Both the position numbers and the translations under genes were made by a program. Source: an uncultured Bacilli bacterium (GTDB lineage Bacteria > Bacillota_I > Bacilli_A > RF39 > UBA660). Taken from it: a stretch of 51,176 nt of DNA. Positions 15,784-51,176 of the stretch are shown in pieces (the first letter of the stretch is position 1; each line of letters opens with the position of its first letter). The notes under the pieces were generated by a model that did not search any database, was not told the DNA's origin, and was given only the letters and a program-made list of their open reading frames with translations. The stretch spans positions 1-51,176 of the forward strand of contig CANPZX010000002.1 of assembly GCA_947589195.1 (NCBI GenBank), in the 5' to 3' direction.

Positions 15784-17178
15784 CTATTTTATTTCATCAA
15801 AGCATTCATGGTTTTGACAGTAATCATTTGATACAGGAATTGGTACAGTTACATTCATATGTGGAGGGCTAATTTGAATATTAGCATACTTTTTATTTTT
15901 ATAATCTACATATGGTTCAATTTCGAATATTTTTTGACTAGTTTCAAATTCAGGATGATTTATATTTCTAACAAAAAAGAATAAAGCAAAAATTAAAAAT
16001 CCGATTTCAATACTTTTAAAAGTTTGATTGACTAGACTTATATTAGAAAGTGATATGGCTATTCCTAAAAATACAAATGTTGCTGGTAAAACGTGATACC
16101 ATATTTGATAACTAATTCCAGACGTTATTTCTAAAAAATAAGCAATAAAATCTACTCTTTTAAAATTCATCATAAAATATAAAATAAAAATATCTAATAT
16201 AACTAAAATGCAAGTTTTTAAATTTTTAGTTTTATAAAACATACCTATAATAATTAACCAAAGTATTGAGCCTGTAAATATATTTAATTTAGCTACACAA
16301 AGTGCTGAAAAAGTATCAGTTCCAAAAACCATATTTATACTAGAAATAAGCAGTAATAATGAATAATAAGCTACACTTATTAAGTGTCCTAAAGATAAAT
16401 CAATTTTAACAAGAGTTTCAACATCAGTTATAAATAAAATGGCATATGCTTGAATCAATAGAAATAATCCCATTAATATTAGTTTAATTAAATTGTGTTT
16501 GCCAAAATTTTTAAGCTTTATACAACCCCCCCCCCGAAGGTATTTAATAAAGCCAATCTTTTCCAGAATATAGTACATTAAAGCGAAGCCTAATATTAAT
16601 GATGATGCACTAGAAATTATTGATATTAAAACCAAAGGTAATATTACATAAGATGGCATTTTATCATGCAATAAATTTAGGGATACTAAAAAGATTAGTA
16701 ATCCACACCACCAATGAATAGCTACACCATTATATAATAACCAAGCAAAATTAGAAATTAAAATAATAACTAGAGCAGAAATTATAACTCTTTTTCCTCG
16801 ACTTTTAATAATATTTTCAAAACTACTTGAAGTAAAATAAGTAGCTACAAATGCCGAGAATAATATAGATAACCATTTAAAAGTATTAGCTAAAACTACT
16901 GCACTATTAGTTAATTTAGCAAAATTAACTGCAATAAAAGCAAATATCCTTGATAAAGTATCAAAATAACCACCATAAGTTAATTTAAATGAACCAAATC
17001 CATATTCCATATATTGTTTGGTAAAAATAGAACCATCCTCTAAAAACATATAAGGAGCTTTAATAATTTCCGGATTAAGAATAACTAACAAACAAATAAA
17101 TAAAAAGAAAATTATAATTAATAAAAACCAATTATTATTTAAAATTTTAGATGATTTTATTTTCTTACTTATTTTCAT
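15784..17178 (-). CDS. Polytopic membrane protein, putative GT-C/GtrC-like glycosyltransferase (paralog A, contains G10 tract)
   Basis: About 11 hydrophobic segments; EDG..F...YGGY....R motif in the first external loop; located next to gtrA/gtrB-like genes. Confidence 0.7.
   Translation of the reverse strand: MKISKKIKSSKILNNNWFLLIIIFFLFICLLVILNPEIIKAPYMFLEDGSIFTKQYMEYGFGSFKLTYGGYFDTLSRIFAFIAVNFAKLTNSAVVLANTFKWLSILFSAFVATYFTSSSFENIIKSRGKRVIISALVIILISNFAWLLYNGVAIHWWCGLLIFLVSLNLLHDKMPSYVILPLVLISIISSASSLILGFALMYYILEKIGFIKYLRGGGCIKLKNFGKHNLIKLILMGLFLLIQAYAILFITDVETLVKIDLSLGHLISVAYYSLLLLISSINMVFGTDTFSALCVAKLNIFTGSILWLIIIGMFYKTKNLKTCILVILDIFILYFMMNFKRVDFIAYFLEITSGISYQIWYHVLPATFVFLGIAISLSNISLVNQTFKSIEIGFLIFALFFFVRNINHPEFETSQKIFEIEPYVDYKNKKYANIQISPPHMNVTVPIPVSNDYCQNHECFDEIK
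16421..16995. repeat. 575-bp block identical to 18058-18632
   Basis: Read base by base at offset 1637 with no mismatch seen; flanks diverge. Confidence 0.9.
16526..16535 (-). repeat. G10 homopolymer within paralog A
   Basis: Ten C on the plus strand; encodes RGGG in frame. Confidence 0.95.
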
Positions 17179-17414: not shown

Positions 17415-18815
17415 CTATTTTTGCTTTTCTATATGAATACATTCATGATTATCACAGTAAGAATTTTTAACAGGAATCAAAACTTTAAAATCCAGAAGGT
17501 CCGGACTAATTTTAACTAAAGCACATTCTTCATTATTAAAATCAACATATGGCTCAATTTCATTAATATTTTGACTAGTTTCAAATTCAGGATGATTTAT
17601 ATTTCTAACAAAAAAGAATAAAGCAAAAATCATAAAACTTATTTCTAAAACACGATAATTAAATGATATATTTTTAAGATTATTAAGTACAATCATTATA
17701 ATAAAAAATGATAATACCGCGGGTAAAACATGATAATAAACTTGGTAACTAGATCCAGAAGTTATTTCATGATAATAAGTCATAAATTCTATTTTTTTAA
17801 AATATATCATAAAATATAAAATAAAAATATCTAATATAACTAAAATGCAAGTTTTTAAATTTTTAGTTTTAAAAGCTAAATTTATAATAATTATCCAAAA
17901 AATTGAACCAACAAAAATATTTAATTTAGATACCCCCAATGCCAAAAAGGTATCTGTACCAAAAACAAAATTTATACTGGAAATAAACGATAATAATGAA
18001 TAATAGGCTATACTTATTAAGTGTCCTAAAGATAAATCAACTTTACTAATAGTTTCTACATCAGTTATAAATAAAATGGCATATGCTTGAATCAATAGAA
18101 ATAATCCCATTAATATTAGTTTAATTAAATTGTGTTTGCCAAAATTTTTAAGCTTTATACAACCCCCCCCCCGAAGGTATTTAATAAAGCCAATCTTTTC
18201 CAGAATATAGTACATTAAAGCGAAGCCTAATATTAATGATGATGCACTAGAAATTATTGATATTAAAACCAAAGGTAATATTACATAAGATGGCATTTTA
18301 TCATGCAATAAATTTAGGGATACTAAAAAGATTAGTAATCCACACCACCAATGAATAGCTACACCATTATATAATAACCAAGCAAAATTAGAAATTAAAA
18401 TAATAACTAGAGCAGAAATTATAACTCTTTTTCCTCGACTTTTAATAATATTTTCAAAACTACTTGAAGTAAAATAAGTAGCTACAAATGCCGAGAATAA
18501 TATAGATAACCATTTAAAAGTATTAGCTAAAACTACTGCACTATTAGTTAATTTAGCAAAATTAACTGCAATAAAAGCAAATATCCTTGATAAAGTATCA
18601 AAATAACCACCATAAGTTAATTTAAATGAACCGAGTCCATATATAAAATACTCTTTAGCAAAAACCCAACCATCTTCAGCAAAAATATAAGGAACTTTAA
18701 TAATTTCTGGATTAAGAATAACTAATAAAACGATAAATAAAAAGAAAGTCATAATTAATAAAAACCAATTATTATTTAAAACTTTAGATGCTTTTATTTT
18801 CTTTCTCAGTTTCAT
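17415..18815 (-). CDS. Polytopic membrane protein, putative GT-C/GtrC-like glycosyltransferase (paralog B, contains G10 tract)
   Basis: Tandem paralog of 15784-17178 with the same motifs. Confidence 0.7.
   Translation of the reverse strand: MKLRKKIKASKVLNNNWFLLIMTFFLFIVLLVILNPEIIKVPYIFAEDGWVFAKEYFIYGLGSFKLTYGGYFDTLSRIFAFIAVNFAKLTNSAVVLANTFKWLSILFSAFVATYFTSSSFENIIKSRGKRVIISALVIILISNFAWLLYNGVAIHWWCGLLIFLVSLNLLHDKMPSYVILPLVLISIISSASSLILGFALMYYILEKIGFIKYLRGGGCIKLKNFGKHNLIKLILMGLFLLIQAYAILFITDVETISKVDLSLGHLISIAYYSLLSFISSINFVFGTDTFLALGVSKLNIFVGSIFWIIIINLAFKTKNLKTCILVILDIFILYFMIYFKKIEFMTYYHEITSGSSYQVYYHVLPAVLSFFIIMIVLNNLKNISFNYRVLEISFMIFALFFFVRNINHPEFETSQNINEIEPYVDFNNEECALVKISPDLLDFKVLIPVKNSYCDNHECIHIEKQK
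18058..18632. repeat. 575-bp block identical to 16421-16995
   Basis: Direct comparison of the two copies. Confidence 0.9.
18163..18172 (-). repeat. G10 homopolymer within paralog B
   Basis: Ten C on the plus strand, in frame. Confidence 0.95.
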
Positions 18816-47040: not shown

Positions 47041-48791
47041 AAAAACAACTTAATTTAAAAATCTCCTTAAAACATTTTATAGCTAATTTAGGTAACGAAA
47101 AAAAGAAAGTTTATTTAGGAATATTTTTAGCTATTATTAGTGTAATTATCTCCGTTATTTTACCAACTTTTTTAAGTAAAGCTACGGACTATCTAGTTTT
47201 AGGAATTAATCATGAAGATAACCTTTATCTTATACACATTAGAAATATCTTATTAATTTCTTTTCTCTTACTTATAGGTAGTACAATTTTTAGTTATTTA
47301 GAATCATTAGTAATGTGTAAAGTAAGTAAAAAAGTAAGTTATCAACTCCGAAAAAATATTATTACTAAAATCAATAAATTACCTTTAAATTATTTTGATA
47401 AAATCGAACATGGGGAAATCTTAAGTTTAATGACTAATGATATAGAAGTAATTGCTGATACTTTAGCTACTGATTTAACGGAAATATTTTCTTCAATTAT
47501 TTTATTTATTGGCATCTTATTTATGATGCTTAGATTAAATATTTTATTATCTATTGTTATTTTTCTAATTATTCCTTTTAGTTTAGGTATTTGGTTTATT
47601 TTAGTAAGTAAAAGTCAAAAATATTTTAAAGATTATCAAGATTATCAAGGACATATCAATGCCCATTTAACGGAAAGCTATAAAAATCACACCATTATTA
47701 AACTATATCAAATGGAAAATAAAAGTATTAAAAATTTAAAAAAATTAAACAATACTTTAACTGAAAGTGTTTGGAAAAGTAATTTTATTTCTAGTTTAAT
47801 GCATCCTTTAATGAAGTTATTTGGTAATATTAGTTTTGTTTTAACTTGTATTATTGGTGGATATTTTTGTTTACAAGGTAAAATGAGTTTAGGAAACATT
47901 CAAGCTTTTATTACTTATGCAAGAAATTTTGCTAATCCTTTAATTAATTTAGGTTCCTTAACCGGAGTGATGCAACAATTGTTGGTAGCTAGTGATCGAA
48001 TTTATGAATTTTTAAATGCTAAAGAAGAACCTTTAGAGTTAGCTTTAGATGATAACAGTGTTTTTAAAGGAGATATTGAATTTAAAAATGTTAATTTTGG
48101 TTATAATGAAAAAATAGTTATTAAAGATTTAAATTTAAAAATTAAAGCTGGAACTAAAATAGCCATTGTGGGACCAACTGGCAGTGGTAAAACTACAATT
48201 GTTAAATTATTAATGAAATTTTATAATATTAATTCTGGAGAAATTTTAATTGACGATAAAAATATTCAAGAGATTAATAAAAAGACTTTAAGAGATAATA
48301 TTGGGATGGTTTTACAAGACCCTTGGGTTTTTGAAGGAACAATTAAAGATAATATTGCTTTTGGTAAAGAAAAAGCTAATATTAGTGATATAAAACTGGC
48401 TTGTACTAAAGCTAATTTAAATCATTTTGTTAATGCTTTACCTAAAGGTTATAATTTTAAAATCAATGAAAATAATGATAATATTAGTGCTGGAGAAAAA
48501 CAACTTTTAACGATTGCCAGAGTATTCTTAAAGAATCCTAATATTATTATTTTAGATGAAGCGACAAGTAATGTTGATACTAGAACCGAAATGTTAATAA
48601 CTAAATCATTAGATAAATTAATGAAAAATAAAACTTGTTTTATTATTGCTCACAGGTTATCAACTATTGTTAATGCGGATATTATTATTGTAATTAAAGA
48701 TGGTAAGTTAATTGAAATGGGTAATCATGAAGATTTATTAAAACAAAAGGGCTTTTATCATGAGTTATATTTTTCGCAATTTGGCGATTAA
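47037..48791 (+). CDS. ABC exporter, fused permease/ATPase (second subunit)
   Basis: GPTGSGKTT, ISAGEKQ, ILDEATSNVD, IAHRLST; ATGA overlap with the first subunit. Confidence 0.93.
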   Translation: MKKQLNLKISLKHFIANLGNEKKKVYLGIFLAIISVIISVILPTFLSKATDYLVLGINHEDNLYLIHIRNILLISFLLLIGSTIFSYLESLVMCKVSKKVSYQLRKNIITKINKLPLNYFDKIEHGEILSLMTNDIEVIADTLATDLTEIFSSIILFIGILFMMLRLNILLSIVIFLIIPFSLGIWFILVSKSQKYFKDYQDYQGHINAHLTESYKNHTIIKLYQMENKSIKNLKKLNNTLTESVWKSNFISSLMHPLMKLFGNISFVLTCIIGGYFCLQGKMSLGNIQAFITYARNFANPLINLGSLTGVMQQLLVASDRIYEFLNAKEEPLELALDDNSVFKGDIEFKNVNFGYNEKIVIKDLNLKIKAGTKIAIVGPTGSGKTTIVKLLMKFYNINSGEILIDDKNIQEINKKTLRDNIGMVLQDPWVFEGTIKDNIAFGKEKANISDIKLACTKANLNHFVNALPKGYNFKINENNDNISAGEKQLLTIARVFLKNPNIIILDEATSNVDTRTEMLITKSLDKLMKNKTCFIIAHRLSTIVNADIIIVIKDGKLIEMGNHEDLLKQKGFYHELYFSQFGD

Positions 48792-48831
48792 AAAAAACAT
48801 CTAAGTAAAATAAATTACTTAGATGTTTTTT
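48790..48831. terminator. Bidirectional terminator between convergent genes
   Basis: AAAAAACATCTAAGTAA...TTACTTAGATGTTTTTT. Confidence 0.85.
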
Positions 48832-51176
48832 AAAAAGCTAAGACAAGTCGAAAACCAATGTAGTTATATGCAGAGCCGTTGTCCGTATCAAACATGAACA
48901 AACCAGCTCCAACACCGACGGCACAATCGCCTCCACGATGCACCCATGGATTGCTCGTAGAAACAGGATAGCCATCGTCGCCATGCCAACTACTTATGTA
49001 TCTAGTTTGAGCAGCTATATTAGGTATCGTTCCTTGATATTGTACTTGTTTAAATGGCCCCATTTCACCGGTTGCATCACCAAAAATAAATCGACTATTA
49101 TCTTTATCATTTATACTATATGTATATATATCATAATATCTTGAATCATCTGGCAATTCTATTCCATTTGAAACTATACTTTTATCAGTATTTTTACCAT
49201 TAAATCCAGAATTATTAGTAGAATTTGGACCGGATGCTAATACGCCTGAATATTCATTATCTTCCATACCTGCCATCATATATTCATGATTTCCTCCACT
49301 CATATCAAAAATACCACTATAGTTATTTGTTGTGCTTGCTACGACACTTGCAGAATTAAAATAATTAGTATTATATGTTCCATCTAATCCCTTAGTTGCT
49401 CCACCAAATTCATTACAAGCATTTGGATATGTTGTACATGATTCATTCGTTGCTGTATAACCCGTTGTTGGTGAATTTATCGCGGCATATCCAGTTAAAT
49501 AACTAAGATTATTATTGATTCTTACCTCTTGTCTACTTCCATAGATACTATGTTGTAAATAAGCAACTGCTCCCCACTCTGTATTTTTCATCATATGACT
49601 ATTTAAATTTGCTTCGTAATTTCTTCCTACAACATAAGCTTTAGATACTTGAATGCTTCGCCATGAATATACATTTGGTTTTATTATCACATTCTTTGCT
49701 TCTTTTAAAGCATCACTTTCATCTATTGGATTTACTTGAGCTCCAGCAGTATTTTCTGCTCCTTTATATCCAGTTTCGAATTTTCCTACCCAAATACCAT
49801 TCGTATTAAATGAAGTAAAAGCTGGATGGGTTAACCATGTTTCCTTTGTTTGTCCTTTTGATACTTCAGTATCAAATCTATCTTCAAATATTACTTCTAT
49901 TGTTTGAACTTTACTTGTTATATCTGTTGTTGATAAATCTTTGTATTTCTCATCACTAAATATTTGATAGCGATATCTTGGTATCCATACAAAATAACTT
50001 TCAATATCTTCTTCATTTATTGGTTGATTTATTCCAGGATCATCTTTTCCCTCAACTAATATAACTGCATTTGCCCATTCTTGATTGGAATAATCATACC
50101 ATTTTTCATTAGTGTCAGCTCTGGTTACTTTTCCTTCATTATCTATTTTAACTGGTATTAAATTATTTTTTAATACTGGATCTGCTCCATTTAAATCTGT
50201 TTCTTGATATCCATTATAACTTAATTCATAAGGTTCCGTTTCGGTTCCTTTACCATTTGATATTAATACTTCGGGCTTTAGATATAATGTGGGCTTAATT
50301 AAATCAGCTCTCCAAACTTGATGATTACCTACTGCCCCTGTTGGGCCCATTGCAGTAATGTTGTCCCAATAATCAGTTATAGGCATAAGCATTCTTTGAT
50401 CTTTTAAAGTTTCCAATAACCAATTGGTATATGCACAATCAGTTTGATATGTATCATTTTTCCAATTATATAATTCTTGCTTTAAACATAGTTCACGATT
50501 ATTTGTACTTTCTCCACTTGTAGCATATCCATAATCTGAAGGATACATTAAAGCAATTTTGCCTTGCCATAATTTAGGGCGAGAACTTGATACTGTTGTA
50601 CTTCTTTCATAATTATAAAAATCATTTGTTATAATTCCAATACTTGTACTATTTCCTCCCAAATTCCATAAGACTGTATCTATCATATTTTTTGCTTCAG
50701 TGGTTAAACCACTCTTACTAAAATCACATTCTGTTGTTGCATTATTTTGTCCAGTCGGACAATCTCCACTAGTTCGATTATAATATGCACCAGAATTTAA
50801 AAGTAGTTGTAATTTGGCATCACTCCAATCATTGCTTCCATATGGACCTTTTGATGTTCCTTCATTGTTATTTTTATTATCATAAGACATCGCTGGTTCT
50901 AATGCATCGGCTCTTATTATTTTTACTCTTTGTCCTTCAGGTGTATTAACTAGGCCAATTATCCTCCATAACTCATTATTAAACTTAACATAATTATTAG
51001 GATTTTCTCCATAATACCTGTATTCTTCTTGTTTTAAATTAGCTATTGCTTCATTTGGATTTAAGCCATATTCATTATATCCAGCATCTACTATATTTGC
51101 ATCTTTATGACTTACTTTAACAATTCCACTTCCTCCAGCTATATCTTTATCTTCTATTGCTAATCTTTTTATATCT
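48830..51176 (-). CDS. Large multidomain protein with C-terminal C-type-lectin/FGE-like domain, 5'-truncated by the window
   Basis: Frame stays open from 50890 to the window edge (…YRYYGENPNNYVKFNNELWRIIG…). C-terminal domain has VWIPRY, THPAF, WVGKFE, EWGAVAYL, GIFDMSGGNHEY, RGG, GFRLVL*. Confidence 0.85.
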   Translation of the reverse strand, partial: DIKRLAIEDKDIAGGSGIVKVSHKDANIVDAGYNEYGLNPNEAIANLKQEEYRYYGENPNNYVKFNNELWRIIGLVNTPEGQRVKIIRADALEPAMSYDNKNNNEGTSKGPYGSNDWSDAKLQLLLNSGAYYNRTSGDCPTGQNNATTECDFSKSGLTTEAKNMIDTVLWNLGGNSTSIGIITNDFYNYERSTTVSSSRPKLWQGKIALMYPSDYGYATSGESTNNRELCLKQELYNWKNDTYQTDCAYTNWLLETLKDQRMLMPITDYWDNITAMGPTGAVGNHQVWRADLIKPTLYLKPEVLISNGKGTETEPYELSYNGYQETDLNGADPVLKNNLIPVKIDNEGKVTRADTNEKWYDYSNQEWANAVILVEGKDDPGINQPINEEDIESYFVWIPRYRYQIFSDEKYKDLSTTDITSKVQTIEVIFEDRFDTEVSKGQTKETWLTHPAFTSFNTNGIWVGKFETGYKGAENTAGAQVNPIDESDALKEAKNVIIKPNVYSWRSIQVSKAYVVGRNYEANLNSHMMKNTEWGAVAYLQHSIYGSRQEVRINNNLSYLTGYAAINSPTTGYTATNESCTTYPNACNEFGGATKGLDGTYNTNYFNSASVVASTTNNYSGIFDMSGGNHEYMMAGMEDNEYSGVLASGPNSTNNSGFNGKNTDKSIVSNGIELPDDSRYYDIYTYSINDKDNSRFIFGDATGEMGPFKQVQYQGTIPNIAAQTRYISSWHGDDGYPVSTSNPWVHRGGDCAVGVGAGLFMFDTDNGSAYNYIGFRLVLAF
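48833..48993 (-). other. Putative DGR variable region (VR)
   Basis: 75/150 G+C over 48841-48990 by hand count versus 26/120 over 49081-49200; 14 of the last 53 codons end in C; W..RGG...G.F....G......GFR scaffold. Confidence 0.6.

Follow-up and report, generated by a model that had tools for sequence, protein, structure and literature searches.

The gene at one end of the 51,176-nucleotide stretch of DNA analysed here (the window) ends in a GC-rich tail. This tail is probably, with a probability of about 0.6, a former remote target of a diversity-generating retroelement (DGR), orphaned after the retroelement was lost from this genome. The window is the entire contig C2 in the assembly of an uncultured Bacilli bacterium (1.35 Mb, 27% G+C, 90 contigs, 88.55% complete). 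In the proposed course of events, a template repeat (TR) with AAY codons at the variable positions would have been reverse-transcribed with adenine-specific errors, and the product would have overwritten the 3' ends of several paralogs scattered through the genome, the window gene among them (targeting in trans, or "remote" targeting). Codons ending in C or T (NNY) would have remained between the A-poor codons of the scaffold, which would explain the jump in G+C. The encoded surface protein would be anchored in the membrane and end in a C-type-lectin domain of the FGE type, with the tail as the ligand-binding tip of this domain. The retroelement, with its TR, MutS-like gene, Avd and reverse transcriptase (RT), was apparently lost from this genome, so that the tail would now be drifting as an orphan by ordinary, mostly GC-to-AT, point mutation.

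The open reading frame (ORF) of the gene covers 48833–51175 and runs past the contig end, with its stop codon TAA at 48830–48832 (minus strand; ORF list). The initial annotation had marked 161 bases (48833–48993) as an orphan DGR-like variable region (VR). They contain 53 whole codons (48833–48991), which translate to SWHGDDGYPVSTSNPWVHRGGDCAVGVGAGLFMFDTDNGSAYNYIGFRLVLAF and match the string of scaffold residues first read there; about 48836–48970 can be aligned with the TR/VR repeats of relatives. The GC-rich end with 14 C-ending codons in an AT-rich gene was confirmed. The G+C content of the 53-codon tail is 48.4%, versus 31.1% in the other 728 codons of the gene, and adenine makes up 28 of 159 bases (18%) in the tail versus 900 of 2184 (41%) in the rest. 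C-ending codons are enriched (14/53 versus 37/728 elsewhere in the gene; Fisher odds ratio 6.7, p = 1.6e-6), and only 6 of the 53 codons end in A, versus 326 of 728.

Relatives of the same genus carry DGRs that act on this family. Among 24 same-genus genomes, the family was found in 16, with up to 27 matches each. RVT_1 matches were also present in 16, and a DGR-type RT of about 320–390 aa, as read from open-frame lengths, was present in 13. In G006, G016 and G015, the 3' end of the target is repeated 180–330 bases downstream as a TR/VR pair, and 15 of 16, 15 of 15 and 11 of 11 mismatches, respectively, are at adenines of the template. A fourth comparison gave 16 of 18. The genes after the target match MutS_I, bAvd and RVT_1 above the Pfam cut-offs, and the order in G015 and G045 is target, TR, MutS-like gene (MSL), Avd and RT, then a 319–401-aa gene, cvpA and trx. 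The RTs of the relatives contain I-G-N-Y-T-S-Q; the motif [LIV]GxxxSQ is a hallmark of DGR RTs. The domain encoded in the window is 41% identical to the G015 target (E 2e-70), and the window gene is thereby homologous to targets paired with a TR that differs from them almost only at adenines. The TR/VR pairs of the relatives prove that the family is a DGR target.

The window gene had been taken for one of many dispersed paralogs, and a six-frame search of this genome, with the C-terminal 156 residues as query, returned 21 matches. These correspond to 19 such tails (C81 overlaps C28 by exactly 77 bases and contains the 5' part of the C28 gene, and C3 was matched in two pieces). The full-length paralogs have about 650–990 residues with a hydrophobic N-terminal anchor at the start. 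In the codon alignment of the family, hypervariable codons are interspersed among the fixed residues of the scaffold SSWY.D.GYPV..S.PWV.RGG....GTEAGLFSF.R..G.A...IGFRLVLAF. Many tails are located at the ends of contigs, and at the 5' side 9 of the 19 genes are cut off by a contig end. C58 and C14 are identical over exactly 77 bases and diverge at the first variable codon, a sign of a branch in the assembly graph. Because the assembler broke at repeats of the family (C81/C28 and C58/C14), copy numbers and absences in the assembly are soft. The family is widespread: among the matches listed, a relative is encoded in 575 of the 593 stretches that fit the pattern in species-representative genomes, and the 80 loci retained are mostly from uncultured gut Bacilli or "Tenericutes". 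The libraries searched hold no name for the family. The protein collection holds no orthologue from other strains above 76% identity, and its top rows are paralogs from this genome.

Some members of the family are irregular. On C82 (4–1580 and 2121–3449), a paralog is frameshifted near 619–621 and is followed by the tandem start of another family gene. On C41 (71–706), a tail adjoining the contig end has a closed frame of only 212 codons. Directly after rplU-prp-rpmA, at the position of the DGR target in G015, there is a remnant of a family gene that is decayed and broken in frame (C1:17779–18127).

A "virtual template" built from the copies of this genome over-calls adenines (66/174) and is circular, and was therefore replaced by leave-one-out counts and by the real templates of relatives. 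With the three real templates, more adenines per codon go with a higher amino-acid entropy in the aligned columns of the 19 paralogs (Spearman 0.78, p 3e-11). The mean entropy is 2.55 bits at AAN-aligned columns (n = 12), versus 0.69 bits in the columns compared with them (n = 31; p 7e-6). At the 12 AAN-aligned columns, every codon of the window copy is NNY (12 of 12). The figures are 93 of 96 for eight copies that form a core group, 113 of 132 for the eleven remaining copies and 128 of 231 for variable codons upstream. The tails thus combine an A-poor scaffold with NNY codons at the AAY positions of the template.

It is very improbable that no retroelement was ever involved, with a conserved lectin scaffold whose loops diverged by ordinary diversifying selection under a local codon bias. 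Binding-site loops vary under any mechanism, and when all 19 copies are pooled, the third codon position varies about as much as the first two (see below). However, selection would not hold third positions at C or T (97% NNY in the core versus 55% upstream), would not make third positions less diverged than neutral ones, and would not lower adenine to 18% where the rest of the gene has 41%. The proven TR/VR pairs on the same family within the genus also argue against it.

The divergence of third positions was compared among five core copies whose upstream sequence is complete: C26, C29, C66, C67 and the one in the window. In their hypervariable codons, positions 1 and 2 differ in 51% of pairs and position 3 in 17%. 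In the gene body, third positions differ in 34% of pairs, and in 43% of pairs for amino-acid-variable codons (resampling p 0.002). The hypervariable third positions are less diverged than those of the gene body, and therefore the tips are younger than the genes carrying them, as expected if a single template had been written into paralogs that had already diverged. For all 19 copies, the difference in hypervariable codons is 0.59, 0.56 and 0.47 at positions 1, 2 and 3, and the contrast is gone. Judged by these codon differences, the other eleven tails are older or from another template.

An exchange of tails among paralogs by gene conversion, as in cassette-type antigenic variation, would be in keeping with the many dispersed paralogs, some of them truncated or frameshifted (C41, C82), and with a small AT-rich genome that has phase-variable surface genes. 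But no exact match at another place in the genome exceeds 22 bases for the 161 bases of the tail or 36 bases for 507 upstream bases, and the codon alignment showed no mosaic tracts. Because exact matches of the tail are so short, gene conversion is a highly unlikely source of the variation.

The initial annotation had placed the DGR elsewhere in this genome, but it was not found there. The RVT_1 profile gave 0 matches at E ≤ 1 in the assembly. Three RTs and three Avds of relatives used as queries gave best E values of 0.3–10 (RTs 0.3–9, Avd by tblastn 0.5). The best bAvd match (E 0.10, 13.3 bits) is below the cut-off and lies inside a 1128-aa frame. An Avd-like match downstream of the C58 tail (E 8.6) was rejected, being in a housekeeping gene region. 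The genome-wide BLASTN search of the tail at word size 7, proposed earlier as a way to a template next to an RT, returned only in-frame 3' ends of paralogs among the matches listed, and the six-frame search for a TR gave the same result; a template at 85% identity would head the BLASTN list. The 88.55%-complete assembly thus yielded no TR, DGR-clade RT or Avd. Outside the genome, two IUPAC core-scaffold patterns gave 0 matches in metagenome contigs and 0 in viral contigs, and blastn against phages gave nothing. The lack of a template-like repeat and of a DGR RT from this genome or close relatives had been named as evidence against the initial annotation. Both are missing here, but both are present in close relatives.

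The site where G015 and G045 carry their cassette was also inspected. On contiguous contig C26, a gap of 474 bases at 19% G+C separates the target from an 81%-identical 319-aa gene, cvpA and trx, and no cassette remnant was found within this gap. Only the right flank is common to C26 and the G015/G045 site; the left flank of G015 (prp, rpmA) is on C1 here.

Relatives also carry a second type of DGR. In G023 and G016 it comprises a target ending in GVRPRFLI, a 195-aa gene, a TR, a 400-aa RT, a MutS-like gene and rpsB. Its loci L152 (G023), L153 (G016:C19) and L151 (G003) have 2–4 direct repeats of about 270–680 bases between an Avd-like gene and the RT, which are possibly multiple template copies. 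In this genome, only the target (52% identical to the G023/G016 target) and the MutS-like gene of the second type are left on contiguous contig C22. There is one MutS-like gene in the genome, 55–62% identical to those of relatives, with no Avd, TR or RT alongside it.

Of 104 positions with a consensus non-adenine base (the same base in at least six of seven core copies, leave-one-out), the window tail departs from the consensus at 12, and 8 of these changes are GC-to-AT. One of the 12, a C-to-A change at an Arg codon, falls within the last 24 bases of the ORF, presumed to be the homing-initiation end with a putative homing-site function; when paralog 3' ends were compared, this segment showed AT-ward changes relative to the freshest paralogs. 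Of about 105 positions, the numbers of deviations are 1 for C26, 2 for C58, 3 for C29, 5 for C14, 8 for C28, 8 for C66 and 11 for C67, and 17–23 for C63, C3, C75 and C41. In relatives, cassette-adjacent (cognate) VRs have 0–2 non-adenine mismatches. The closed 1.31-Mb genome G041 has one RT, one TR and seven remote paralogs. The non-adenine mismatches of remote paralogs number 4–30 in G006 and 6–26 in G041, and only the cassette-adjacent VR is clean. The window tail looks like these remote copies, as if homing had once reached it and it had not been rewritten while about a dozen point changes accumulated. In Logan contigs from 4 of the 7 runs found, with a depth of 3–5 only, the pieces over the VR are identical to the window, and other differences come from paralogs or relatives.

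These data also bear on whether the target is still live, with a cassette present in the organism but missing from the assembly that rewrites the window gene and several paralogs in trans. This is possible but rather unlikely. It would agree with an incomplete assembly fragmented at exactly this family, with the DGR-type RTs in same-genus genomes, and with hypervariable third positions half as diverged as the gene body in the core group, to which the window copy belongs. Trans diversification of remote targets is also documented elsewhere, in excerpts of PMC5758913 and PMC10907252. However, no cassette is present at the site shared with G015 and G045, the second cassette type is stripped down, and no template appeared in the pattern scans of metagenome and viral contigs. 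Recent homing would have erased the 12 deviations in the window tail, and in G006 and G041, with their mismatch-rich remote paralogs, only the cassette-adjacent VR is clean.

Several points weigh against an orphaned target. The assembly has no contig below about 2.5 kb and is repeatedly broken inside the family, besides its incompleteness and its 90 contigs, and the cassettes of relatives are on short contigs (3.7–9 kb); assembly or binning could therefore have dropped a cassette. Some relatives have several cassettes at different sites, so that absence at one shared site leaves other sites possible. C26, C58 and C29, followed by C14 and C28, are almost without non-adenine deviations, as after recent homing. 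Deviation counts are approximate, because the core consensus comes from copies of this genome. Shared structural loops could also account in part for the match between variable columns and template adenines. A true loss of the cassette, rather than a failure to assemble it, is the more probable reading.

The C-terminal domain was examined by structure modelling and profile searches. In the model, it is predicted to adopt the three-dimensional fold common to TaqVP, Mtd, TvpA and FGE. This model was obtained with a 120-sequence alignment; an alignment of 15 paralogs gave a predicted local distance difference test score (pLDDT) of 30.1 only. The Pfam family FGE-sulfatase (PF03781) matches 11 of 15 paralogs (best E 1.4e-5) and 6 of 37 wider relatives. 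At E ≤ 10, it does not match the window copy. Among Atlas neighbours, PF03781 is on 22 of 30 named matches. Sequence-profile searches of the PDB gave weak matches only (EgtB-IV, E 0.16; PvdO, E 0.3–0.4). A DGR-type VR on a C-type-lectin/FGE-fold domain, as first proposed, is thus supported by the predicted fold, by the entropy at template adenines, by the NNY codons and by the TR/VR pairs of relatives, and the tip may serve in binding.

Runs of 10–11 G were observed a few codons after the ATG of DGR-target paralogs (five 5' ends; Table 1). The genome, at 27% G+C, has 85 runs of at least 8 G or C. With poly-G tracts near the ATG, these genes likely pair a slipped-strand on/off switch with a retroelement-written tip. 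A full two-layer system, in which an unassembled DGR rewrites five to eight or more of the 19 tips in trans and poly-G tracts switch the genes on and off, is doubtful. If true, both the genes expressed and what each binds would be varied in a 1.35-Mb genome, and the targets per template would exceed the seven or eight given in excerpts of published surveys.

The hairpin noted after the stop codon is real. It has a perfect 12-bp stem (48797–48808 with 48815–48826) extended by a flanking A-run and T-run. It occupies the 38-base gap of two convergent genes, the ABC-transporter ORF ending at 48791, and therefore looks like an ordinary two-way terminator. A consensus terminator scan called 0 terminators at the hairpin, because the scan requires 3 G-C pairs. 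The 80-base downstream folds of other paralogs range from -4.2 to -26.5 kcal/mol, and some are clearly terminator-like but share no common sequence. A DGR cruciform was considered for the hairpin and rejected, as the hairpin is AT-rich and its sequence is not conserved among paralogs; a two-way terminator is the most probable reading. At the 3' end of the VR, where an initiation-of-homing site or cruciform was sought, only this AT-rich hairpin was found, with no TR of this genome for comparison.

Table 1. Coordinates of the features in the window (plain positions) and on other contigs of the same assembly (contig:positions).
Feature	Position	Strand	Remarks
Surface-protein gene, 3' part	48830..51175	minus	781 open codons and stop; 5' end off the contig; member of 19-paralog family
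Variable-region-like segment, 53 codons	48833..48991	minus	Composition, codon counts, NNY at template AAN columns, entropy versus template adenines
Last 24 bases of the ORF (GFRLVLAF)	48833..48856	minus	TR/VR identity of relatives ends here; presumed homing-initiation end
C-terminal 360 residues, predicted FGE-type C-type-lectin fold as in DGR variable proteins	48833..49912	minus	
AT-rich hairpin	48797..48826	none	Between convergent ABC-transporter gene and surface-protein gene; RNAfold -22.8 kcal/mol
C-runs in the window	16526-16535 and 18163-18172		
Poly-G runs near start codons of paralogs	C10:23038-23047, C29:3813-3823, C66:14-23, C51:7411-7420, C50:5333-5342		C on the plus strand
Second-type DGR remnant, locus L150	C22:202-1446 and C22:1661-2023	minus and plus, respectively	415-aa gene with 60% G+C tail (...FGVRPRFLIK), then GC hairpin

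The mechanism is not new, since remote and leftover DGR targets have already been described. The comparisons that follow draw on excerpts of the cited papers. Treponema has seven remote targets (PMC5758913), and Treponema denticola isolates without RT or TR retain target genes as "likely leftovers" (PMC4891356). As in T. denticola, the VR is C-terminal, several target paralogs are dispersed, and VRs still show the adenine footprint in strains without RT or TR. In contrast, this genome has 19 tails in 1.35 Mb, the cassettes of its relatives have Avd and a MutS-like gene (an HRDC gene in Treponema), and the paralogs also have poly-G tracts near the start codon. The cassettes of relatives, with the order target, TR, MutS_I protein, Avd and RT, resemble the MSL-containing DGRs of "Architecture D" (Wu et al. 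2018, PMC5758913), whereas the MutS-like gene of this genome has no such company. Cyanobacterial C-type-lectin paralogs have likewise spread within genomes, some with remnant TR/VR homology and no nearby RT, and the authors suggest that diversification components were removed (PMC7517822). Those proteins are mostly cytoplasmic and act in signalling, with kinase or caspase-like N-termini, whereas the proteins here are anchored at the surface in a reduced gut Bacilli genome. TaqVP of Thermus aquaticus (PDB 5vf4) has no detectable sequence match to the domain, and its host lineage and N-terminal parts differ.

Metagenome surveys miss remote targets by design, as stated in excerpts of PMC8144416. 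Our literature search found no paper on DGRs in this Bacilli lineage, although supplementary tables of PMC5758913 and PMC8144416 may list some, and no paper on DGR targets with poly-G switches. The family shows how a gut bacterium with a small genome builds a large repertoire of surface lectins, with random tips written into many paralogs, and that the paralogs persist after the retroelement is gone, if the cassette was indeed lost here. For annotation, a gene tail that is rich in G+C and poor in A within an AT-rich genome reliably flags present or past DGR action.
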